A stretch of DNA of 13,661 nucleotides from Sphingobacterium griseoflavum (GTDB taxonomy: Bacteria > Pseudomonadota > Gammaproteobacteria > Pseudomonadales > Cellvibrionaceae), in the NCBI GenBank assembly GCA_052039425.1, contig JBQGED010000156.1:1-13661 (forward strand), read 5' to 3'. This document shows positions 1 to 12,683 of this stretch, piece by piece. Both the position numbers and the translations under genes were made by a program. Every line of letters begins with the position of its first letter. Position 1 is the stretch's first letter. The notes beneath the pieces are model-generated. The model had not been told where the DNA came from and ran no database searches. It saw nothing but the letters and a program-made list of their open reading frames with translations.

Positions 1-2
1 CT

Positions 3-137
3 TTGATGAGTGGCGATGATATGGTGATTTCCGGCCTGAAGAACAAGGCACAGATCGCCGCGAGCAGTATTACGCCGGATAGTTTGGTCGCCAAAGCCAT
101 GTTAAAGCAGCAGGCGCCGCGCGGTAATTCCAATTAA
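3..137 (+). CDS. 3' end (about 44 codons) of an unidentified gene entering from upstream of the window
   Basis: Frame 3 is open from the window edge to TAA at 135-137 (…ISGLKNKAQIAASSITPDSLVAKAMLKQQAPRGNSN*). A strong intrinsic terminator follows about 20 nt downstream. No recognisable motif in the fragment. Confidence 0.3.
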   Translation: MMSGDDMVISGLKNKAQIAASSITPDSLVAKAMLKQQAPRGNSN

Positions 138-152
138 AAAAATTCCACCAAT

Positions 153-184
153 AAAAAAGCCGCCATCAGGCGGCTTTTTTTATC
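153..184. terminator. Bidirectional rho-independent terminator shared by the convergent genes ending at 137 (+) and 202 (-)
   Basis: A-run (153-158), stem AGCCGCC (158-164) / loop ATCA / GGCGGCT (169-175), then T-run 175-183. Read on the minus strand it is again stem + T-run, 19 nt past the TGA (202-204) of the giant minus-strand gene. Confidence 0.8.
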
Positions 185-201: not shown

Positions 202-3200
202 TCAGCTCGGCTTCGGATCAGGCTTGCGCGGTTCGCGTAATTGTTTTTTCTGCTCCGCCAATTCCTTTTGAATTTTGAGTTCGATATCCGCCAGCTGCTT
301 GGAGATGTCCTGCATTTTGTAATGGGTACGCAGATCGATTTCCAGCTTTTTATCCATACTGCGCACAATCGGATACAGGCTCTGCTCGATGGACGCGGTT
401 AATGTCTCCAGCAATTTATCGAGGCCGGGCACCGGCTGGTTGATCACTTCCACATTGGGGCGATTGGCGGCAATCGTGTTTTGGATTTTGCCGACCAGGT
501 CGAGCAGAAGTTTTTGCTGCTCTTCCTGACGACGTTTCTCCACTTTTGCGTCGCTTTCTGTGGTACTCGGTGCGCGCGCGGTTTCTGCCAAGTCGCGCAC
601 GCCGCCGACGAGATCAGCGAGTTGCACCACGATTTTACTGCCGGTATCCGCGTCGTCCCCGCCCATGGCTTTGTTGCGCAGAAAATCCGCTTTGATCTGC
701 TCCCAGCGGGCTTTTTGTTCCGCCGTGAGCGCGCCGCGAATTTCCGCCAGTTTCAGTAGATTTTCCTCCGCACCGGAAGTCAGTAATTGCGCTTCGCCGA
801 GATAGTGATCGGCGATCATCTGCTGCAGCTCCTGCTCGTTCATCACCGACGCAATCTTTTCCGCCATCTTGTTCATATTGCGATAACTGCCCTGCAATTT
901 GAACGGCGGTTCTGTGCGGTATTTTTCCGCCTGTGCCGCGGAAACGATGTACTGGCGATTCACCTTCATAACGATATCCCGCACCATAAATAGCTTGCGC
1001 AGCACATCGACAATTTCGCTGACTTCCGCCGCGCTGTAGCTGTGGGATAAATCGGTGGTGGCGATATTTTCGCCCTGCGCCATTTTGACAAACTTGTACA
1101 GATCCTGCAGATCCCGCGTCGCGAGCGGTGCGAGAACCGGATTGGAAGTGAGGCAGTTTTCGATATAGCTCAGCTCAAACTGTTCTTCCATGCCGCCGAG
1201 AATATCACCGAGGTTATAAATATCCGCGCGGTTGGCCAGCATATCCGGAATTTTGAACACCTCACCGGATTCCGTATAAGGGTTGCCCGCCATCACCACG
1301 CAGAATTTGCGTCCGCGCATATCGTAGGTCTTGGTTTCGCCGCGCCAAACGCCCTCGATACGGCGGGTGCCGTCACACAGGGAAATAAATTTCTGCAGAA
1401 ATTCCGGATGGGTGTGCTGAATATCATCGAGATAGAGCATCACGTTATTGCCCATCTCCAACGCCAGATTGAGCTTGTTCAACTCCTGGCGCGCAGTGGC
1501 GTTGGGCGCCTGCGCGGGATCGAGGGACAGCACATCGTGACCGAGCGCCGGGCAGTTAATGCGCATAAAAATCAGCCCCAGGCGATTGGCCACATATTCC
1601 ATCAAAGTGGTTTTACCGTAGCCCGGTGGCGAGATCATCATCAACAGACCCATAAGGTCCGAGCGCTTATTTTCGCCGACCGTACCCATTTGCTTGGCGA
1701 GGTTATCGCCGATAATCGGCAAATAGGATTCGGTAATCAGCCAGTTGCGCACAAATGAGGTGAGCGGCCGCGCCTTAAAATCTTGCAGGCGCAGCTGGCG
1801 GCGCTGGCCTTCGACAAACTGCTGGCGCGCGGCGAGAAAACGGCGATAGGCTGGAATAAATTCTCTGCGGTGGCGCTCCACCTTTTCCAAAAAGGCATCC
1901 ACCGACAATGACAGACTGCGCTCTTTGATCAATGCATGCTCACCGAGCAGACCCTCAATGCGAAATTCCAGATCGATCTGAGTCATTCTGCGGTCGAGGC
2001 GCTGATCGGCATTGAGCAACGCTATGGCTTCAGGAATATAGCGACGCAAATGCTGCAAGCCGCGATTTTCCACCATGGCGGAAAACCAAGCCTGGGATAG
2101 ATCCCAACGGGCGGAGGGCAATCCAACCAATTTATCCAACGCGCTTTGATAGCGACGCCAGGCCGCATCGTCCAAGGAGCGGCGCAATTCCTCCGTCAAT
2201 ATCTGCGCATAGCGGCTGCCAATAAATTCCAGCCGTTCGCGGCCCAATTCCAATACCAGATATTCGGCGGCGCGCACCCTTGTCAGCGCATTGATCGGCA
2301 GTGGATGCGCTTCGACAAATGCCGCCATAGCCGCTTGAATTTCCCGCGCAAGAATATCCGCCGCTTGCTGGCTGCCAAAGACACGCTGCATATGCGCAGC
2401 GGACTGCGCCCGTTCGCTCCAGGTTTGCCAATTCATAGGAGTTTTGATTTGCGCGGAAAAGGATTCCAGATTGGCCCAGAATTTCTGCGCAAAACCGCGA
2501 CTCAATGGATCAAAGCGCAATAAATCCGCCTGTTCAAGCGCTGGCAATAACGTTTGCAGAATCAGCGCGGCATCGTGATCGTGAATACCTTTTTCATAGC
2601 CTTCGCGGTAACGCTGGGCGGCATAATCCCGCACCAAGCGTTGCATGGCAGCCGAACCGAGCAAGGCACTTTTGAGCTGCTCACTATTGAGCCCGTCAGT
2701 ATTGTGCTCTGCGGCGTAAATGATGCTGGCGGCAAGATATTCCGCCCGATAAATATCCGGGCTTTCCGACTCCAAGGTCACGGTCCAAAACGCTTTGAGC
2801 TCATTCAAAGCCGGGTCGTCGACCTGCTGGTAATATTCCGTACCGGTGAGATGGAGATACAGGGAATCCTGGCGCGGAATCAGGGTGAGATCCAATTCCT
2901 GCGTATTGACGCTGAATTTATGCCGTGGCCCGAGTTTGACCACATTGCCGCCGGCTTCAAATAAATCGCTTTTATCACGCAGGGAGCGCGCGCCTTGATC
3001 GCGAATACTTTTGAATTTCGCCTCCACGTCATCCGCTTTGACGGCGTTATCCAGTTCGCGCAACTGGGCGACAAATTCGCGCACCTTTTGCACCATGGCG
3101 TCGGCTGCGAAAAACGTATTCAGCTGCTGCGCGTCGGTAAATTTCTGCGCGCGCCGTTCGATGCTGGTGAGCACCCGCGACGCAGCATCCACCACTGCCT

Positions 3201-5523
3201 GCGCCTTGCGCTGGCGCTCGTCGAGCAATTGCTGTTTGTGTGCCTCAAAGGTCTCGTAAATTTCCTCGCGCTTGGCAACTATATCGGCGAGAAATTCCTC
3301 GCGGTCGGCAAACTGGCTTTCCAATTCCTCCAACTGCACCAGCAGGCGTGCCATTTGTTCATCGCAAGCCTCGGGTGTGGAAGCCAGACCTATGGCATTG
3401 GCGATGCTTTGGGACAGCAATTTAAATTGCGCGCCGAACTGCGCCACCGCCTCCGCCGAACCAAAACTTTTTTGTTTGTGCCCCGCCTGTGCTTTGCATT
3501 GATTCAACTTGGCGTATACCGCCGCTATGCCATCAATAATGCGCGTATGGACCGTCGCGTCGCCCACTTTGAGCGTAGCCAATAATTCGGTCAACAAATC
3601 CAGACCGGAAGCCATGCTGTCAATCTGCTGCAACAGCGGCGCAAGTTCAGCGACGGTCGTAACAACGTCCAGATCGCGATAAAACTGCTCGATGCGCTCC
3701 TCGTAGGGGCGCAAGGCGCGCTCGTCCGCGAGAAAAGCCACGGTTTTCTCACTGATGGCATTTTGCTGTTCCAACAGCTGCTGTTCCAGTTGCTCGATGC
3801 GAGCGACGTCAATGTAGCGGTGATCGCGAATGGTGGCGAGATGACCGCGCTGGCGGCGGATTGCATCCAGTGCGCGTACGTGATCGTCGGTGGTTTCCCA
3901 ATTCGATGTTCGGATAAACGCCAGCAGCTGATTTTGCTGCTGCTCCGCGCCCGCCAGTGCTTGCACGGATTGCTGGCGAATATTTTCGACTTTTTCAAAT
4001 TCGTCGATGGCCAGTTCGGCGGTTTTGCCAATTTCCGACAACAGCGGTTTCAAGCTGGCAGTGTCGGCGTCGCCAATCCAATAATGATCATCAAAAATCT
4101 TCAGTGCGGCTTTGCGCAATTCTTCATAGAGACGCAAAGTCACCGATTGGTTATCGATAATGCGCGCTACCGCAAATAAATCCGCGATGCCACGCACCAG
4201 CTCCGCATTGCCGACGCGTCCCAGAAATGTCTGTTTGGGCGGTTCGCGGCTGGCATGCTCCGCACTGAAAAACGGCGTGCGCCACACCTGCATGGGATGA
4301 ACCCTTGTCGGCTCCGGCACCGCGGCAAAAATGACCAGCGTGCCGTCTTCGGCCAAGGCATAACCATCACCGTAAATCGGATTCTGCAGGGTTTTGTTAA
4401 TCATGTTGTAGGCGAAAAGGCCCACCAACCCCGCCTTGGCCTCATAAAATACGTAGAGCACATCCTCGCCGTTGGGCGAGCGGATCATGCGGCTGAACAA
4501 CATGTCACGACTGCCGTCATCAAACGTTTTGTACTGTCCCGTCTGCAAATAATAGCCTCCGGGAAAAACAATGCCGTGATCCTCCGGCAACTGCACACAG
4601 GACGCGCCTATGGCGTCTATGCGTTGAACTTCGCGGGTGAGCTTATTGAAAACCAGATAGCGCCACGCGGTTTCGCGGTAAGGCAGAATTTTCAGCAGAA
4701 TCAAACTGCCGAGTTCGGCATACCAGAATTCACCATCGTCGATAGACTGATTGAGATCTTCCACCGGTTCGCGATAAATACCGAGACCGCTCTCGGTATT
4801 GTTTTCGATTTTTACCGTGAGGTCGCCACCGACGGTTTCAACGAAAATCTGATTGAGAATATTGACGTGTGGATGTTTGCCGTTGACCACCTGATCGCGA
4901 GTGGTTTTAGTCCATTCGAAATCAAATGCCGGTGGCAGTTGAATATCGCGTTCACCGCGATTGTCGATGTAGATTACCTGCTTCGCATCCGCAGACAGAT
5001 TCCAACGAAACACCCGCATGTCGCTGCGCCGTTCGCCAATCTGGAATGCTGCCAATAATTTGCCGTTGCGCACTGCGAGCTGCACCAAATGCGTATGCTT
5101 GTAGTAGCGGTACAACTCTTCGAAGTCTCGCTGAAACGCAGGTTCAGTGAGAAAAGTGCCGGCGAGAGGAATTTCCTGCATCGCGGCATCATCACCGCTC
5201 CCTTCAAGCCGGAATAATGCAAAAACGTCGGCGACGCGAGTTTCGGTTTTCAAGCCGAGAAAAACGTTATAGCCGAACAGCAAAACATTCCCGACCTGAA
5301 CTATGTCGCGAGGAATGCAATTATTTTCCGTGCGCACGCGGACGCGCGCTGCGACCGCCATTTCCGAATGGCCGAATTCCCCCAGCCGCGCCTGGTTGAG
5401 TGCTGAGGTGAGGATTTTGAGTTGTTCGCCCTGCTCGGTCAGACGCCGCCGAATGATGTCATAGGCACCACCTTCCGCCACCGCTTGGTCAAATTGAGAA
5501 TTATCCGGATCTATGACCGCCAT
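202..5523 (-). CDS. Giant (about 1773 aa) multidomain AAA+ ATPase: N-terminal beta-rich domain, long coiled-coil region, MoxR/AAA_5-type ATPase core, C-terminal helical tail
   Basis: Continuous ORF. The ORF track starts at a TTG (5565). The first ATG is 14 codons downstream (plus-strand CAT at 5521-5523), preceded by AGGGA 7 nt upstream, and is taken as the start. AAA+ motifs by eye: Walker A ISPPGYGKTTL (codons at about nt 1609-1638), Walker B VMLYLDDIQ, sensor/second region VVMAGNP…IPDMLANRADI. These align motif-for-motif with MoxR (GVPGVGKT / LLADEINRA / VIATQNP…LDRF). Residues about 470-1250 are A/E/Q/R/L-rich helical repeats. Residues about 15-465 are beta-rich (e.g. GDGYALAEDGTLVIFAAVPE). 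Confidence 0.85.
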   Translation of the reverse strand: MAVIDPDNSQFDQAVAEGGAYDIIRRRLTEQGEQLKILTSALNQARLGEFGHSEMAVAARVRVRTENNCIPRDIVQVGNVLLFGYNVFLGLKTETRVADVFALFRLEGSGDDAAMQEIPLAGTFLTEPAFQRDFEELYRYYKHTHLVQLAVRNGKLLAAFQIGERRSDMRVFRWNLSADAKQVIYIDNRGERDIQLPPAFDFEWTKTTRDQVVNGKHPHVNILNQIFVETVGGDLTVKIENNTESGLGIYREPVEDLNQSIDDGEFWYAELGSLILLKILPYRETAWRYLVFNKLTREVQRIDAIGASCVQLPEDHGIVFPGGYYLQTGQYKTFDDGSRDMLFSRMIRSPNGEDVLYVFYEAKAGLVGLFAYNMINKTLQNPIYGDGYALAEDGTLVIFAAVPEPTRVHPMQVWRTPFFSAEHASREPPKQTFLGRVGNAELVRGIADLFAVARIIDNQSVTLRLYEELRKAALKIFDDHYWIGDADTASLKPLLSEIGKTAELAIDEFEKVENIRQQSVQALAGAEQQQNQLLAFIRTSNWETTDDHVRALDAIRRQRGHLATIRDHRYIDVARIEQLEQQLLEQQNAISEKTVAFLADERALRPYEERIEQFYRDLDVVTTVAELAPLLQQIDSMASGLDLLTELLATLKVGDATVHTRIIDGIAAVYAKLNQCKAQAGHKQKSFGSAEAVAQFGAQFKLLSQSIANAIGLASTPEACDEQMARLLVQLEELESQFADREEFLADIVAKREEIYETFEAHKQQLLDERQRKAQAVVDAASRVLTSIERRAQKFTDAQQLNTFFAADAMVQKVREFVAQLRELDNAVKADDVEAKFKSIRDQGARSLRDKSDLFEAGGNVVKLGPRHKFSVNTQELDLTLIPRQDSLYLHLTGTEYYQQVDDPALNELKAFWTVTLESESPDIYRAEYLAASIIYAAEHNTDGLNSEQLKSALLGSAAMQRLVRDYAAQRYREGYEKGIHDHDAALILQTLLPALEQADLLRFDPLSRGFAQKFWANLESFSAQIKTPMNWQTWSERAQSAAHMQRVFGSQQAADILAREIQAAMAAFVEAHPLPINALTRVRAAEYLVLELGRERLEFIGSRYAQILTEELRRSLDDAAWRRYQSALDKLVGLPSARWDLSQAWFSAMVENRGLQHLRRYIPEAIALLNADQRLDRRMTQIDLEFRIEGLLGEHALIKERSLSLSVDAFLEKVERHRREFIPAYRRFLAARQQFVEGQRRQLRLQDFKARPLTSFVRNWLITESYLPIIGDNLAKQMGTVGENKRSDLMGLLMMISPPGYGKTTLMEYVANRLGLIFMRINCPALGHDVLSLDPAQAPNATARQELNKLNLALEMGNNVMLYLDDIQHTHPEFLQKFISLCDGTRRIEGVWRGETKTYDMRGRKFCVVMAGNPYTESGEVFKIPDMLANRADIYNLGDILGGMEEQFELSYIENCLTSNPVLAPLATRDLQDLYKFVKMAQGENIATTDLSHSYSAAEVSEIVDVLRKLFMVRDIVMKVNRQYIVSAAQAEKYRTEPPFKLQGSYRNMNKMAEKIASVMNEQELQQMIADHYLGEAQLLTSGAEENLLKLAEIRGALTAEQKARWEQIKADFLRNKAMGGDDADTGSKIVVQLADLVGGVRDLAETARAPSTTESDAKVEKRRQEEQQKLLLDLVGKIQNTIAANRPNVEVINQPVPGLDKLLETLTASIEQSLYPIVRSMDKKLEIDLRTHYKMQDISKQLADIELKIQKELAEQKKQLREPRKPDPKPS

Positions 5524-5577
5524 ATTTTTTCCCTGTATGTGTGCTGCATGGAATGCGGGACTCAATGTGCAGAATCA

Positions 5578-8426: not shown

Positions 8427-9113
8427 TTATTTCTTTTGTTTCAGCCGCTCTAGGATGTCCTGGGCGCTGGAGCCGTTGGAAACGATTCCCGCTTTCTCAA
8501 GTTTGCGCTGCAGATGGTCTTCGCTGGTTTCCTGAGCGAGTTCCGTGGCGGCTTTCATTTGCGCGGATTTCTGCGCTTGTTTTTCTTTAATGCGTTCAAG
8601 AGATTCCATAGCGGTCTGCAATTTGGAATTGGAGCCACTGTGACGCTCGGCCACTGCGGCCTGGGCGCGCTGAACATTTTCCGTGGCTTTTACCGTATCC
8701 ACCTGCTGTTTCAGACGCTTGATATTCTGTTCGGCCTGCTTGACCGCCTCGCGCAGCTGATTGGCGCTGCCGGCAAACTCCTGAGCCATCGCCTCTTCAT
8801 TGCGCAACTGATTCTCGAAATCCGCAATTTTTTGTGCGACCTCCAACGCGAGCGCATCTTCGCCTTTGCTCAACGCCTGGGTCGCGTAACCCTCGTGCTT
8901 AGCAATTTGCTCGCGCAATTGCTGGCACTTTTCCTCCGCCAGTTTTTGCCGCGCGATTATGGCCGCGAGGGAGTCCTTGCTCTGGCGCAACTCCTCCGAC
9001 GCATCGCGCACTTCCTGGTCGAGAATTCTCAACGCCTGGGTGTCCACGATCGCCTCGCCCACTTCCGTGGCTCCACCGCGCAGGGCGGTAATCATTTTGG
9101 CCCATATATTCAT
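8427..9113 (-). CDS. PspA/IM30 (ESCRT-III superfamily) protein, YjfJ-like, 228 aa
   Basis: The ORF track begins at an upstream ATG (9140). I place the start at the ATG at 9111-9113 (MNIWAKMITALRGG…) because GGAG lies about 7 nt upstream and overlaps the stop codon of the preceding gene. The sequence is all-helical and heptad-rich. The C-terminal motifs VKATENVQRAQAAV… and AGIVSNGSSAQDILERLK closely match E. coli YjfJ as I recall it (VVKATEAMQRAQ…AGIGGSNKSSAQDVLARLQ). Confidence 0.85.
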   Translation of the reverse strand: MNIWAKMITALRGGATEVGEAIVDTQALRILDQEVRDASEELRQSKDSLAAIIARQKLAEEKCQQLREQIAKHEGYATQALSKGEDALALEVAQKIADFENQLRNEEAMAQEFAGSANQLREAVKQAEQNIKRLKQQVDTVKATENVQRAQAAVAERHSGSNSKLQTAMESLERIKEKQAQKSAQMKAATELAQETSEDHLQRKLEKAGIVSNGSSAQDILERLKQKK

Positions 9114-9123
9114 AGTCGATCTC

Positions 9124-9774
9124 CTAGGCTTGCGCCTCATTGGGGGTTTTCAAAAAATCCGCATAGGCCTCAGTCGCCTGAATGACGTTCGACGCGAGCA
9201 CCTCAATTTCAAACACTACATTGGCGAGTTCGGAGGCGGAACTCAGGGCACCAAACATATGGTAGTAGTCTTTGCCGTGCGCGAGCGTGTCCAGACTGAT
9301 GGTGGAGAGCGGAAAATATTTATGAGTCCGCAACACCGCATCGTTGAGCCCAACCTGATCAATCACATCGTCCGCAGACCAGAGCACCGACTCTGCAATA
9401 ATCTGATCTCCCGCCACTGTCACAAATACGGGCAGATCGCCGTACTCGTGCATGGTGATATGGAGCGCCGGTTCGACGCCGTCGATCAACGCCAAGGTCG
9501 CCTTGTGCTCGCGGAACAGAGAGGCTCCCTGCAGCGCATCGAACAAAGATTCGGTCGTCCAAGTGTTGGCTGATTCGATCATCATTTTTCCTCCGATGGT
9601 GGCCAAGTCGAGCGTATCGACGGTTTCGCGCAATTGCTTTTCCACATGGGCAAGCAACTTCGCATTTTCCGGGCGAATCCAAACCTCCTTTTTCACCAGA
9701 CCGCTGTCGCGCAGTCGCTTGCGGAATTCCCTCTGGTAGTGGGCGGACGATTTCGCTTTCATGAGACGAACCAT
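9124..9774 (-). CDS. Two-part protein: N-terminal about 63-aa DUF3018-like (ribbon-helix-helix/antitoxin-like) segment in frame with a DUF2170/YjfI-like (YbjN-type chaperone-like) domain; first gene of the operon
   Basis: ATG at 9772-9774 (AAGAAGG just upstream). The N-terminal segment KSSAHYQREFRKRLRDSGLVKKEVWIRPENAKLL resembles DUF3018-type small DNA-binding proteins as I recall them (…SAERMRAYRARLRAAGLRPVQIWVPD…). The C-terminal about 150 aa (…YHMFGALSSASELANVVFEIEVLASNVIQATE…) fits the YjfI/DUF2170 family, which sits directly upstream of yjfJ in E. coli. There is an internal in-frame ATG-ATG at 9585/9582 with a perfect GGAGG 4 nt upstream. Stop is TAG at 9124-9126. Confidence 0.6.
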   Translation of the reverse strand: MVRLMKAKSSAHYQREFRKRLRDSGLVKKEVWIRPENAKLLAHVEKQLRETVDTLDLATIGGKMMIESANTWTTESLFDALQGASLFREHKATLALIDGVEPALHITMHEYGDLPVFVTVAGDQIIAESVLWSADDVIDQVGLNDAVLRTHKYFPLSTISLDTLAHGKDYYHMFGALSSASELANVVFEIEVLASNVIQATEAYADFLKTPNEAQA

Positions 9775-9779
9775 ACCTT

Positions 9780-9839
9780 CTTACATGTAATCTTGTAAAT
9801 ATCATCACATGTAATATTTTGGAATAGATTACATGTGAT
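9780..9839. promoter_or_regulatory. Three operator-like copies of a 12-bp palindrome (consensus ATTACATGTAAT) with centres exactly 24 bp apart, directly upstream of the minus-strand operon
   Basis: Copies at 9780-9791 (CTTACATGTAAT), 9804-9815 (ATCACATGTAAT) and 9828-9839 (ATTACATGTGAT). Each has one mismatch to the perfect palindrome. ACATGT cores are at 9783, 9807 and 9831. The proximal copy ends 6 bp from the start codon and overlaps the RBS. The region is AT-rich. Confidence 0.55.
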
Positions 9840-9940
9840 ACCAAACGGCGAGTTTACACAGATTTCCTCACCCTGTTGCTTCTTATATATCCCTAAGGCA
9901 AAACCCACTGTTGTCGCTACGGCTGCGACGGGCGTAAACC

Positions 9941-9969
9941 TTGACAGCTAGGGACCGTCCCCCTAGCAT
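9941..9969 (+). promoter_or_regulatory. Candidate sigma70 promoter for ispB
   Basis: Perfect -35 TTGACA (9941-9946), 17-bp spacer, -10 TAGCAT (9964-9969), about 35 nt before the ispB ATG. Divergent from the minus-strand operon. Confidence 0.4.
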
Positions 9970-10005
9970 CCACCCCCAATTTCCGACCAACCAAGATTCC
10001 CGCCG

Positions 10006-10968
10006 ATGCTGCCGTTTCAACAAGCTGTCGCCACCGACTTGTCTTTGGTGAACGACATGATCATCAAAGAACTGCATTCCGAAGTCGGCCTGGTGGAAAA
10101 TATAGGCCACTACATAGTGGATGCCGGCGGCAAACGCCTTCGCCCCATCCTGGTTCTACTCACCGCACGCTGCCTGGAATATCCCAAACAGCGCCATATC
10201 GATCTGGCGACCATCATCGAATTTATTCACACCGCCACACTGCTGCACGACGATGTGGTCGATATGTCAGCGCTGCGCCGTGGCCGCCCCACGGCCAACG
10301 CCCAATTCGGTAATGCGCCGAGTGTGCTGGTGGGTGACTTCCTTTATTCCCGCGCGTTTCAGATGCTGGTGCGCCTGGGCAGCATGGAGATCATGGCGAT
10401 CCTGTCCGACACCACCAACGTGATTTCCGAAGGTGAAGTCCAACAGCTGATTAACGCCAAAAACCCTTCGGTGAGCGAGCAGGACTATCTGACCGTTATC
10501 CATAAAAAGACGGCAGCCTTGTTTGAGGCGGCATGTCGCACCGGGGCGGTTCTGGCTGGAGCCGGGGAAGAGCAGAAACAGGCGGCTTTTTTGTTTGGCC
10601 ATCACCTGGGGCTGGCATTTCAGTTGATCGACGATCTGTTGGATTACGAAGGCGATCAGGCGGCGCTAGGAAAAAACATTGGCGACGACTTGGCAGAGGG
10701 CAAACCGACACTGCCGTTGATTCACGCCATGGCACACACCGAAGGCGCCGAACAGGAGCTGATCCGCGACGCCATCACCAACGGCAGGGTCGATCATCTG
10801 GCCGATATTGTGGCGCTGATCCGTCGCTGCGGCAGTCTCGACTACACCCGGCGCAAAGCCCAGGAGCACGCTCAAAAGGCGGAACTCGCTCTGGGCGCAT
10901 TGCCCGACAACTCCTGGCGCAAGGCGATGGAGGAACTCGCCCGCTTTTCGGTTACCAGAGCCTATTGA
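10006..10968 (+). CDS. ispB: Octaprenyl-diphosphate synthase (trans-polyprenyl diphosphate synthase)
   Basis: 320 aa and near-collinear with E. coli IspB. Shared features: GGKRLRP, first DDxxD LLHDDVVD, second DDxxD QLIDDLLDY, GKNIGDDLAEGKPTLP, CGSLDYTRRKA. Confidence 0.93.
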   Translation: MLPFQQAVATDLSLVNDMIIKELHSEVGLVENIGHYIVDAGGKRLRPILVLLTARCLEYPKQRHIDLATIIEFIHTATLLHDDVVDMSALRRGRPTANAQFGNAPSVLVGDFLYSRAFQMLVRLGSMEIMAILSDTTNVISEGEVQQLINAKNPSVSEQDYLTVIHKKTAALFEAACRTGAVLAGAGEEQKQAAFLFGHHLGLAFQLIDDLLDYEGDQAALGKNIGDDLAEGKPTLPLIHAMAHTEGAEQELIRDAITNGRVDHLADIVALIRRCGSLDYTRRKAQEHAQKAELALGALPDNSWRKAMEELARFSVTRAY

Positions 10969-11039: not shown

Positions 11040-12683
11040 ATGTCCTACAGCAGACTTTCCGACAAATACACCGTTTGGCCGCAACTGGAGCAACACCGCG
11101 AATCCTGGAAAAGCCAGACACTCGCCAACCTGTTCCGCGATGACGGCAATCGCTGCGCGCGCTTCAGCGTCTCTGCCGCCGGCATCGAGCTGGACTACTC
11201 GAAAAACCACGTCACCACCGAAACCCTGCAACTTCTGCTCGAGGTCGCCCGCCAGGCGGATTTGAGCGGCGCTATCAAAAAGCTACTCAAAGGCGAGCAC
11301 GTCAACGGCACCGAAGACCGCCCCGCTCTGCACACCGCGCTGCGCCACACTGGTACACCGGTGACCCCAGAGCAAAAAGCCGTAGCAGAAACCCTGGACA
11401 AGATGGCTGGCCTGATTACCGCCGTACATGAGGGTCAGTGGACCGGCTACACCGGCCAGCGCATCACCGACGTGATCAATATTGGTATCGGCGGTTCCGA
11501 CCTGGGTCCGCGCATGGTGACCAAGGCGCTGACGCCCTATTTGAACGCAGCCGTTAACGTACACTTCGTAGCGAATATCGACGGCGCCGAGCTCTCCGAC
11601 ACCCTGGCCAAGCTCGATCCCGCCAGCACCCTGTTTATAGTCGCATCCAAATCCTTCTCCACCCAGGAAACACGGGAAAACGCCCTCAGTGCCCGCACCT
11701 GGATGTTGGATGCCGGCTGCCCTCAGCAAGAACTAAGAAAGCACTTTGTCGCCATTTCATCCCGGGTCGATAAAGCGGTGGAATTCGGCATAGCGCAGGA
11801 AAACGTCTACCCGATCTGGGACTGGGTCGGCGGTCGTTATTCCCTTTGGTCCGCCATCGGCATGTCCATTGCCTTTGCCGTGGGCATGGACAACTTCAAC
11901 CGTCTGCGCGCAGGCGCAGAGGCCATGGATAAACATTTCGCGGAGGCTCCGCTGGAGAAGAACCTGCCGGTCCTTATGGGGCTGCTGATGTTTTGGTATA
12001 GCGAGTTCATGGGCTCCAGCACGCAGGCGATCCTGCCTTACGCCCATCACTTGAACCTGCTGCCGTCTTACCTGCAGCAATTGGAGATGGAAAGCAACGG
12101 CAAGAGCGTGACCCGCGACGGCAACCCGGTGGACTACCCTACTGGTGCCATCGTATGGGGTACCGAAGGCACCAACGGCCAGCACTCGTTTCACCAACTG
12201 CTGCATCAAGGTACCAGCCTTGTACCCATCGACTTTATCGCCACGCTGAAAGGTCACGATGAGTTGAAACATCAACACCGCCTGCTATTCGCCAACTGCG
12301 TGGCGCAGAGCCAGGCGCTGCTGACCGGGCGCAATCTGGATATGGCAAAGACCGAGCTGAAAGCGCAAGGCTACAGCGAACAGGAGATCGCCTTCCTGGC
12401 GCCGCACAAGGTTCATCCAGGTAATCGCCCCAGCAACACCATGGTGATGGAAAAGCTGACTCCAGAAACCCTCGGTGCGTTGATCGCCGCCTATGAGCAC
12501 AAGGTGTACACCCTCGGCGTGCTGCTGGACATCAACTCCTTCGACCAATGGGGCGTGGAGCTGGGCAAACTGCTCGGCACTCACGTCAATATCGCCATTG
12601 AAACCACCGATATCCCCGGCGACTGGGATTCCTCCACCCAGCATCTGATCCGCCGTTTCTGCAGCGTCAATTCCGACCTCTAG
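11040..12683 (+). CDS. pgi: Glucose-6-phosphate isomerase
   Basis: Start at ATG 11040 (MSYSRLSDKY…), GGAG 8 nt upstream. The ORF track extends it upstream to 10533, but that extension overlaps ispB. 547 aa, with PGI hallmarks: IGIGGSDLGP, FIVASKSFSTQET, GGRYSLWSAIG, LEMESNGK. Confidence 0.93.
   Translation: MSYSRLSDKYTVWPQLEQHRESWKSQTLANLFRDDGNRCARFSVSAAGIELDYSKNHVTTETLQLLLEVARQADLSGAIKKLLKGEHVNGTEDRPALHTALRHTGTPVTPEQKAVAETLDKMAGLITAVHEGQWTGYTGQRITDVINIGIGGSDLGPRMVTKALTPYLNAAVNVHFVANIDGAELSDTLAKLDPASTLFIVASKSFSTQETRENALSARTWMLDAGCPQQELRKHFVAISSRVDKAVEFGIAQENVYPIWDWVGGRYSLWSAIGMSIAFAVGMDNFNRLRAGAEAMDKHFAEAPLEKNLPVLMGLLMFWYSEFMGSSTQAILPYAHHLNLLPSYLQQLEMESNGKSVTRDGNPVDYPTGAIVWGTEGTNGQHSFHQLLHQGTSLVPIDFIATLKGHDELKHQHRLLFANCVAQSQALLTGRNLDMAKTELKAQGYSEQEIAFLAPHKVHPGNRPSNTMVMEKLTPETLGALIAAYEHKVYTLGVLLDINSFDQWGVELGKLLGTHVNIAIETTDIPGDWDSSTQHLIRRFCSVNSDL

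Follow-up and report, generated by a model that had tools for sequence, protein, structure and literature searches.

A giant AAA+ protein of the BacE family, genetically fixed to a flotillin and an NfeD-like protein, as a candidate remodeller of bacterial membrane scaffolds

The 13,661-nucleotide (nt) stretch of contig JBQGED010000156.1 analysed here (the window, in whose numbering coordinates and strands are given) carries on its minus strand a gene for a 1773-residue protein that is, by its sequence, clearly a member of the BacE ("DUF3686 / DNA repair ATPase") family. The gene is the last of an operon in which an NfeD-like membrane protein and a flotillin are encoded directly upstream. We propose that BacE is an ATP-driven remodeller of the flotillin/NfeD scaffold, which may sometimes include PspA, under envelope stress. 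This role is inferred, and so are the contact of BacE with the flotillin BacD and the NfeD-like BacC, its oligomeric state and what is remodelled; as a whole we give the proposal about even odds (roughly 50%). BacE bears on the question of what mechanical role bacterial flotillins and PspA-type ESCRT-III proteins have and how they are supplied with energy, and it has been pointed out that for PspA homologues to which no AAA ATPase is linked the way of regulating assembly is unknown (Ravi et al., PMC11237479). BacE is a well-defined candidate for what powers flotillin and PspA scaffolds in bacteria, which is unsurprising beside the papers published on the system in 2024.

Identity of the window protein

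The original prediction, made from the window sequence, had described one open reading frame (ORF) of 1773 residues at positions 202-5523, and this stands. The frame is open over 1787 codons (202..5565), the likely start is an ATG at 5523 with AGGGA ahead of it, giving the N-terminus MAVIDPD..., the stop lies at 202-204, and a 1773-residue protein identical in sequence is present in a public protein collection. The C-terminal tail ...REPRKPDPKPS quoted at the time is likewise present. The family, which had been said to be impossible to name, can be named: DUF3686 together with DUF7902 identifies BacE/PA3728. Pfam DUF3686 (PF12458) matches almost over its full length (model positions 3-448 of 448, E=4e-199, 662 bits vs. 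a cutoff of 25) and is also found in 20/20 BacE homologues, DUF7902 matches with E=7e-27, and the window protein has the combination that characterizes the family, i.e. DUF7902 plus a single C-terminal AAA module (residues 1295-1421) in a chain of ~1600-1900 residues.

Pseudomonas homologues are 57-58% identical to the window protein and have the same gene order, among them that of P. paraeruginosa ATCC 9027 (57%). By way of this strain, and of a match of the window BacA to the NCBIfam equivalog 'biofilm formation regulator BacA' (305 bits vs. a cutoff of 300), the window ORF is taken to be the counterpart of P. aeruginosa BacE (PA3728/PA14_16190), with which it shares Pfam architecture, length class and the upstream order BacA-BacB-BacC-BacD. 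The name bacE was given to the large fifth gene, PA14_16190, by Wallart et al. in 2024 (PMC10948618), and we take PA14_16190 as the PA14 counterpart of PAO1 PA3728. The same architecture and gene neighbourhood, and the same association from comparative genomics, have already been described by Ravi et al. in 2024 (PMC11237479). BacE is therefore already published, but solely as a name and a domain cartoon, and a literature search on 'DUF3686' yielded no paper mentioning it. BacE is a soluble cytoplasmic protein of ~200 kDa, here in a Cellvibrionaceae-like gammaproteobacterium, and has no transmembrane (TM) segment, the maximum 19-residue hydropathy being 1.35.

Strict linkage to a flotillin and an NfeD-like protein

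The genes bacA-bacB-bacC-bacD-bacE form a series of five same-strand genes that overlap or are separated by 59-118 nt, with bacE at the end (Table 1), and their order is that of the P. aeruginosa bac operon (PA3732 to PA3727). Whereas the operon of P. aeruginosa, bacABCDEF ('biofilm-associated cluster'), includes bacF, the window operon ends at bacE with a terminator and has no PLD-like bacF. This terminator is strong and, with an A run ahead of it, bidirectional, although it did not come up in a scan with a terminator consensus. BacD is related to E. coli YqiK (BLASTP E=3e-40, 28% identity over 460 residues) and BacC is collinear with E. coli YqiJ at a non-significant E=0.15, while neither protein has a Pfam match even at E<=1 or a match in PDB sequence searches.

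The family is large and widespread. More than 5317 proteins match BacE at E<=1e-5, under labels such as 'DNA repair ATPase', 'AAA family ATPase' and 'MoxR-like ATPase', and BacE was encountered in at least 588 species when each species was represented by one genome, those listed including Cellvibrionaceae, Pseudomonas, Xanthomonadales, Xenorhabdus, Gilliamella, Comamonas, Zetaproteobacteria and Longimicrobium. Among the matches listed, the nearest relative that carries a name is from Marinagarivorans sp. (86%). When residues 855-1650 were searched against a library of 1.84 billion representatives at 50% identity, 1268 matches were obtained at E<=1e-3, of which 462 reach E<=1e-30, and generic AAA+ proteins were evidently not reached. 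Distant named members belong to Bacteroidota, Fibrobacterota and Planctomycetota. As the full-length members listed have ~1500-2040 residues (mostly 1600-1930) and match at residues ~850-1640, the architecture appears to be constant.

Linkage was counted in the best 80 loci, 70 of which are informative in having at least 4.8 kb of upstream flank. A BacC-like and a BacD-like gene lie directly upstream of bacE in 70/70 informative loci, clustering of ORFs recovers the BacC family in 72/80 loci, and BacA and BacB accompany BacE in 49/70 and are absent in the other 21/70. The locus of Niabella, a member of the Bacteroidota, has the order CesT_Tir_1, PspA_IM30, a 145-residue TM protein, BacC-like (E=2e-13), BacD-like (47% identity, E=1e-179) and BacE, and a Fibrobacterota locus consists only of BacC-like (E=5e-9), BacD-like (46%) and BacE. 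Thus, with BacC and BacD in all informative loci and in other phyla vs. PspA in 49/70, the evolutionarily fixed unit is NfeD-like protein, flotillin and BacE, to which PspA and the CesT-like protein are a frequent add-on. The link to the neighbouring membrane genes that the original prediction had drawn is therefore strong, holding in 70/70 loci and two other phyla. Moreover, the gene of an intact ATPase stands fixed beside a flotillin-NfeD pair in the phyla checked and in no fewer than 588 reference species, which makes energy-dependent scaffold remodelling testable in P. aeruginosa, whose bac operon has already been tied to biofilm, virulence, osmotic stress and phage stress.

The BacD homologues of Niabella and Fibrobacterota, like those of BacC, have empty precomputed Pfam fields. 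As a side observation, the identity of BacD is 46-47% from Proteobacteria to Bacteroidota/Fibrobacterota, but only 28% to E. coli YqiK, and the BacE-linked flotillins look like a separate subfamily, highly conserved and missed by current Pfam models. The additional gene of Niabella yanshanensis (locus L088, 4576-5013), situated between the PspA and BacC-like genes, encodes a multi-TM protein of 145 residues that has no Pfam annotation.

Other recurrent neighbours obtained by ORF clustering in the 80 loci are confined to four kinds: a PLD-like protein (PF13091), which is presumably BacF and occurs in 20-32 loci according to the way in which downstream ORFs are clustered, a 186-residue rhomboid (PF01694, E=2e-21) that follows bacE in 11-19 loci and often overlaps its stop codon, TelA (PF05816) after bacE in 13 loci of Xanthomonadales, and a TFIIB-type Zn-ribbon protein after bacE in 10-12 loci. 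Of these, the PLD-like, rhomboid and TelA genes have been added in particular lineages, and the window contains no rhomboid, TelA or Zn-ribbon gene. Neither a regulator nor a vWA protein is among the conserved neighbours in the 80 loci, and the window has no vWA gene, in agreement with the absence of a vWA partner noted earlier. Novel beside the published descriptions are the quantified fixation of NfeD-like protein, flotillin and BacE across phyla with PspA being optional, the accessory rhomboid and TelA genes, a palindromic candidate operator, and the evidence against the MoxR and DNA-repair labels.

The gene neighbourhood also bears on the widespread annotation of the family as DNA repair ATPase, which we find unsupported. 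The label goes back to legacy names alone (the Pfam description of DUF3686 and the NCBI label 'DNA repair ATPase'), and one may add that RuvB is among the best-scoring solved P-loop relatives; that match, however, covers only the generic region from Walker A to Walker B. Pfam and NCBIfam reveal no nuclease, helicase or DNA-binding domain, the 80 loci contain no conserved DNA-metabolism neighbour, all conserved neighbours being membrane-related, and a literature search gave no paper tying PA3728 to repair. A function of BacE as DNA repair ATPase is thus close to refuted.

A divergent AAA+ core with intact motifs

The motifs PPGYGKTT, MLYLDD, VVMAGNP and ADI, on which the original prediction was built, are all located where it had placed them (Table 1), and the claim of a single AAA+ module in a very large multidomain protein is borne out by Pfam, which finds one P-loop module in BacE. 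Walker A and Walker B agree with the patterns GxxGxGK[ST] and hhhhD[DE], Walker B being the DD variant. All 81 sequences share K1304, T1305, D1366, D1367, N1414 and R1432, the roles of N1414 (sensor 1) and R1432 (candidate Arg finger) being assigned from alignment to Lon and RavA alone, and the core is the most conserved part of BacE, with 78-96% identity in 30-residue blocks across 80 species. The ATPase motifs of BacE are, as far as the sequence tells, intact, and the invariant catalytic residues together with the high identity of the core point to an active ATPase under strong selection.

As AlphaFold2 models the core with a predicted local distance difference test (pLDDT) score below 50, probably because the alignment is 80-96% identical there and holds little covariation, the clade was assigned from sequence comparison. 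In Pfam the P-loop region matches AAA (PF00004; 29.3 bits vs. 21.2), AAA_5 (PF07728; 24.1 vs. 22) and also AAA_22. PDB sequence searches with the single protein, a 20-sequence profile and a diverse 52-sequence profile returned P-loop matches alone (best E=1.5e-3), in the profile searches to the Walker A/beta2 region of NVL, RuvB, Rix7, Rpt3 and p97, and there was no confident assignment to a well-characterised family that is unrelated to membranes. When a diverse-family profile of residues 1240-1480 was compared by hhalign with eight AAA+ proteins of E. coli MG1655, the highest probabilities were obtained for RuvB (95.9%, 75 columns), FtsH (92%), ClpX (92%) and Lon (90.6%), followed by YifB (87%), McrB (73%), PspF (30%) and RavA (19%). 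The Lon alignment spans 128 columns and includes both Walker motifs, the pre-sensor-1 hairpin, the Asn of sensor 1 and the ANRADI Arg. A profile of 81 highly similar sequences aligned over just 18-41 columns around the P-loop and was thus less informative than the diverse one. A pre-sensor-1 hairpin is predicted at residues 1388-1401 and is the sole beta element that AlphaFold2 gives in the core.

Our reading is that the core is divergent and probably nearest to the RuvB/Lon/ClpX (HCLR) and classical groups, with a pre-sensor-1 hairpin and without a canonical pore loop. Lon, RuvB and ClpX are its best profile-sequence matches, the likeness being limited to the ATPase core and weak (PDB E ~1e-3); BacE contains no protease, DNA-binding or ClpP-docking element, and the pore-loop tyrosine of Lon has no aromatic equivalent.

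The original prediction had seen BacE instead as a chaperone-like ATPase of MoxR/AAA_5 type that carries a long coiled-coil lever on a membrane scaffold and works without a vWA partner. With MoxR proteins (RavA, CbbQ/NorQ) BacE shares a single AAA+ module, the AAA_5 match just above the gathering score, which spans model positions 2-127 of 139 and recurs in all 20 members tested (best E=1e-6), and, in a forced alignment with RavA, the collinear order of Walker A, Walker B, pre-sensor-1 hairpin, sensor-1 Asn and an Arg. A pattern 'NP..E.G....P....R' in BacE presumably resembles motifs of MoxR or chelatase type. However, AAA_3 (PF07726), the Pfam model of MoxR, gave no match at E<=1 for BacE or at E<=0.01 for 20 homologues, RavA had the lowest hhalign probability of the eight proteins (8.5-19%), and MoxR, RavA, CbbQ and dynein were all missing from the PDB profile search. 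BacE also differs from MoxR proteins in being five-fold larger, in its unrelated extra domains and in its lack of a vWA partner, none being found next to bacE in the 80 loci, and its supposed stalk consists of helical bundles and a globular domain (see below). The long RavA alignment that reproduces the MoxR 'landmarks' was set aside as forced and without statistical support, so that the one-to-one correspondence claimed for them is obtainable only in this way. MoxR membership of BacE is not supported by these comparisons, and a MoxR-type lever appears quite improbable; of the label 'MoxR/AAA_5-type' the AAA_5 half is carried by the weak AAA_5 match and nothing more. On the whole the original observation was largely right, its domain map being partly wrong and its assignment to MoxR too specific.

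The core and the linkage data together bear on a further alternative, i.e. that BacE is a PspA-specific disassemblase, the bacterial counterpart of Vps4 on an ESCRT-III-like polymer of BacB, for which BacA would be the chaperone. BacB is a PspA_IM30 protein, CesT-PspA pairs share the operon in Proteobacteria and in Niabella, the N-terminal half of the BacE ATPase resembles classical AAA proteins, and ATP-dependent membrane remodelling has been proposed for associations of PspA with AAA+ proteins (Ravi et al., PMC11237479). Yet BacA and BacB are absent from 21/70 loci and from the Fibrobacterota locus, whereas BacC and BacD are never absent. Moreover, Pfam detects no MIT domain, the segment aligned with the Lon pore loop is devoid of aromatic residues, and the predicted pre-sensor-1 hairpin is absent from classical AAA proteins such as Vps4. 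We thus consider a role restricted to PspA unlikely.

Domain organization outside the ATPase

BacE is composed, in this order, of a divergent beta-propeller-like domain, ~430 residues of helical bundles, a middle domain, the AAA+ module and a variable helical tail (Table 1). The original prediction of a beta-rich N-terminal domain of ~450 residues, possibly a propeller or a jelly-roll, holds as far as beta-rich and propeller-like are concerned: AlphaFold2 predicts strands over residues 56-415, and Foldseek gives 96 PDB matches at E<=1e-3, those listed all being beta-propellers. The remaining chain was modelled as residues 601-1773 (mean pLDDT 74), and this model had no PDB match at E<=1e-3 in Foldseek, the best ones being spectrin repeats (E 0.1-0.3, prob 0.90-0.96, ~310 columns).

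In contrast to the claim of a very long coiled-coil lever or stalk, with ~780 heptad-like residues at 470-1250, this region consists of ~430 residues of helical bundles and a globular domain of ~370 residues. Residues ~421-854 are predicted as helices of 15-58 residues joined by loops, and residues 601-854 in the model of the remaining chain as helices of 10-58 residues with short loops (pLDDT 75-90), so that the longest helix in the supposed stalk has 58 residues. The best structural matches of the helical-bundle region are spectrin repeats and three-helix bundles, and in the model the bundles weakly resemble spectrin. Nor is the AAA module embedded between the N-terminal domain and the coil; it lies C-terminal to both, with ~330 residues after it. 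AlphaFold2 gives helices of intermediate confidence for residues 1445-1640 and then an ill-defined tail, which is 12-31% identical and rich in gaps across 80 species; residues 1471-1645 are presumed to form the AAA+ lid plus an extra helical domain.

The linker at residues 850-873 has a pLDDT of ~36, yet it holds the conserved segment KLGPRHKFSVN. The stretch KLGPRHKFSVNTQELDLT, with G865 and H868 unchanged in 81/81 sequences, belongs to the best-conserved segments outside the ATPase, and it is a possible docking motif that would receive either a partner or another domain.

The separate middle domain of ~370 residues, which is confidently folded in the model and has no apparent structural relative, is newly recognized in the present analysis. 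AlphaFold2 builds residues ~878-1250 mostly of helices with small beta elements, no Pfam model covers them, and in the 50%-identity representative library the domain and the AAA module always occur together in one continuous match. Y972, H981, D982 and D984 ('GIHDHD' motif) are invariant in 81/81 sequences of proteobacterial range, and G979, H981 and D984 also in a cross-phylum set of 52 sequences with 30-53% identity.

This raises the alternative that BacE is primarily an enzyme, whose middle domain would carry out a metal-dependent reaction via H981 and D984 on a membrane or envelope substrate while the AAA+ module regulates or delivers. Invariance across phyla of G979, H981 and D984, the presence of H868, Y972 and D982 in 81/81 sequences, the confident fold without known relative, the constant fusion to the ATPase, and frequent neighbours that are lipid- or membrane-active (PLD-like protein and rhomboid) are in line with it. 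On the other hand, neither Pfam, NCBIfam nor PDB gives similarity to any hydrolase, and the invariant polar residues could equally form an interface between domains or with a partner. We regard a primarily enzymatic BacE as decidedly doubtful.

Table 1. Positions of the genes, protein domains and other elements of the window (residue numbers refer to BacE).
Feature	Position in window	Strand	Description
3' end of convergent gene	1..135	+	
Intrinsic terminator after bacE	150..174	-	GCCGCC-TGAT-GGCGGC + T run; fold of region -27.6 kcal/mol
bacE-like gene	202..5523	-	1773 residues
Variable C-terminal helices and basic/proline tail, residues 1646-1773	205..588	-	low pLDDT
Post-core helical region, residues 1471-1645	589..1113	-	AlphaFold2 helices, pLDDT 65-90; conservation 56-81%
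AAA+ core, residues 1285-1470	1114..1671	-	from motif positions, conservation and hhalign
ANRADI, residues 1430-1435	1219..1236	-	includes candidate Arg finger R1432
VVMAGNP, residues 1409-1415	1279..1299	-	includes sensor-1 N1414
Walker B MLYLDD, residues 1362-1367	1423..1440	-	
Walker A PPGYGKTT, residues 1299-1306	1606..1629	-	
Middle domain, residues 878-1250	1774..2892	-	globular, mainly helical, AlphaFold2 pLDDT >90
Conserved segment KLGPRHKFSVNTQELDLT, residues 863-880	2884..2937	-	linear, in low-confidence linker
Helical-bundle rod, residues 482-854	2962..4080	-	includes DUF7902, residues 603-685 (nt 3469-3717)
DUF3686 region, residues 36-481	4081..5418	-	N-terminal helix 20-50, beta-propeller-like strands 56-415, first helices
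bacD-like flotillin, 657 residues	5613..7586	-	one N-terminal membrane segment; BLASTP to E. coli YqiK
bacC-like NfeD/YqiJ-type membrane protein, 220 residues	7646..8308	-	3-4 TM segments and C-terminal soluble part
bacB-like PspA/IM30 (ESCRT-III superfamily)	8427..9140	-	Pfam PspA_IM30, E=2e-48
bacA-like DUF2170 (CesT/Tir-like)	9124..9774	-	Pfam DUF2170, E=2e-50
BacA N-terminal extension, BacA residues ~5-50	9630..9774	-	
Three ACATGT-core palindromes	9783..9836	-	just upstream of bacA; candidate operator
IspB-like polyprenyl synthetase	10006..10968	+	Pfam E=4e-82; housekeeping flank
Phosphoglucose isomerase (pgi)	~11040..12683	+	Pfam PGI E=8e-186; housekeeping flank

A model for BacE function

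SPFH scaffolds repeatedly work with AAA+ enzymes, i.e. HflK/C with FtsH and prohibitin with the m-AAA protease, while Vps4 is the AAA+ partner of ESCRT-III. In view of these precedents the remodelling of a flotillin scaffold by BacE is the most economical model. Under envelope stress the bac operon would be induced, and BacD and BacC would establish a flotillin scaffold on the cytosolic side of the cytoplasmic membrane. BacE may dock on this BacD/BacC scaffold via its propeller and/or its helical-bundle regions and would then spend ATP so that the scaffold is assembled, opened or recycled, the PspA polymer possibly being treated likewise where it is present. In such a scheme BacE would act similarly to FtsH with the SPFH cage HflK/C, or to Vps4 with ESCRT-III.

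Both comparisons have their bounds. As in the FtsH-HflK/C system, an SPFH scaffold is coupled to an AAA+ ATPase, in the case of BacE at the level of the gene, and the N-terminal half of the BacE core aligns with FtsH (92% in hhalign). Unlike FtsH, BacE has neither a protease domain nor a TM segment, it is three times larger, and its partners, a YqiK-type flotillin and an NfeD-like protein, are known from gene linkage. To Vps4-ESCRT-III the likeness consists in an AAA+ ATPase that is encoded with the ESCRT-III-superfamily protein BacB in ~70% of the BacE loci; BacE differs in that an MIT domain is not detected by Pfam, a pre-sensor-1 hairpin is present, and PspA is dispensable for linkage, whereas flotillin and NfeD-like protein are not.

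Several observations weigh against an ATP-driven remodeller. AlphaFold2 leaves the ATPase core (residues 1253-1443) at pLDDT <50. The loop that aligns with the pore loop of Lon, GHDVLSLDPAQAPNATARQEL (family consensus GHxVTSLDPAxAP), contains no aromatic residue, which makes classical substrate threading doubtful, and Walker B has DD instead of DE, with which ATP might be hydrolysed slowly or in the manner of a switch. The model has no explanation for a second, possibly enzymatic, activity that is suggested by the invariant His and Asp residues of the middle domain. Finally, deletion of paFlo3 (bacD) in PA14 has a mild phenotype, reducing biofilm by just ~20% (PMC13086221).

A more far-reaching version of the model, which we put forward only tentatively and deem somewhat improbable as a whole, would make BacE the ATP engine of flotillin microdomains. 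It would dock by its propeller and its spectrin-like rods on the BacD/BacC cage and open, close or recycle it, recruit PspA, and have a second activity in the middle domain with its invariant His/Asp cluster. If this were true, BacE would define a new class of mechanoenzymes that act with SPFH proteins, its conservation extending from Proteobacteria to Bacteroidota, Fibrobacterota and Planctomycetota.

Regulation and links to stress

Upstream of bacA the window contains three palindromes, TATCACATGTAATC, TATTACATGTGATG and GATTACATGTAAGA, with a spacing of exactly 24 nt. By raw count, at least two copies of their core ACATGT occur within 220 nt upstream of bacA in 36/49 related loci, including Pseudomonas, Comamonas, Gilliamella and Lampropedia, and the palindromes are a candidate for a conserved operator of the operon. 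As a bacA mutant derepresses the PA14 operon (PMC10948618), BacA itself might bind them. For the PA14 bac operon a sigma-54 site has been proposed by Wallart et al. (PMC10948618). In contrast, the region upstream of bacA in the window (9775-10005) has the three palindromes instead and no sigma-54 -24/-12 consensus (TGGCAC-N5-TTGC); matches with two mismatches number 15 in the whole window, under the chance expectation of 19.5, and no related locus (L003-L080) has a match to the strict pattern in the 220 nt ahead of its called bacA start.

Ahead of DUF2170, the window BacA is extended at its N-terminus by ~65 residues (...YQREFRKRLRDSGLVKKEVWIRPEN...; Table 1). We take this extension to resemble DNA-binding motifs of the ribbon-helix-helix or MazE-like antitoxin kind. 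A ribbon-helix-helix at this site was dropped as a candidate, as Pfam does not support it and its best match there, at E=0.04, is to a family that is unrelated.

In PA14 the six genes from bacA to bacF are co-transcribed according to reverse-transcription PCR, BacB-F are up 6-13-fold in a bacA mutant, and the summary in the same paper gives osmotic shock and biofilm as conditions in which BacB increases (PMC10948618). A review of the adaptation of P. aeruginosa in cystic fibrosis lists PA3728 among the genes reported mutated in three studies (PMC8190622). The mention of PA3729 in an Arc3 pull-down paper is background and provided no lead.

PA3728-PA3732 are up-regulated in every phage-infected P. 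aeruginosa sample (PMC12041424), and giant ATPases are common in defence systems, so that BacE might be a component of anti-phage defence or abortive infection. The induction, however, also fits a generic phage-shock or envelope response. PADLOC has no match for BacE, BacA, BacC or BacD, and its matches of BacB to JetC/LmuB are coiled-coil noise. The locus, moreover, lies amid the housekeeping genes ispB and pgi, and the family is vertically conserved, with 50-65% identity across orders, unlike typical defence islands. A defence function of BacE is therefore very improbable.

At the other end of the window a convergent plus-strand gene, of which the 3' end is present (...AKAMLKQQAPRGNSN*), stops at ~135, beyond the bacE terminator. 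On the side of bacA, the IspB-like and pgi genes are both on the plus strand (Table 1), and the true start of pgi is probably internal, as its ORF of 716 residues begins far ahead of the Pfam match (residue 221).

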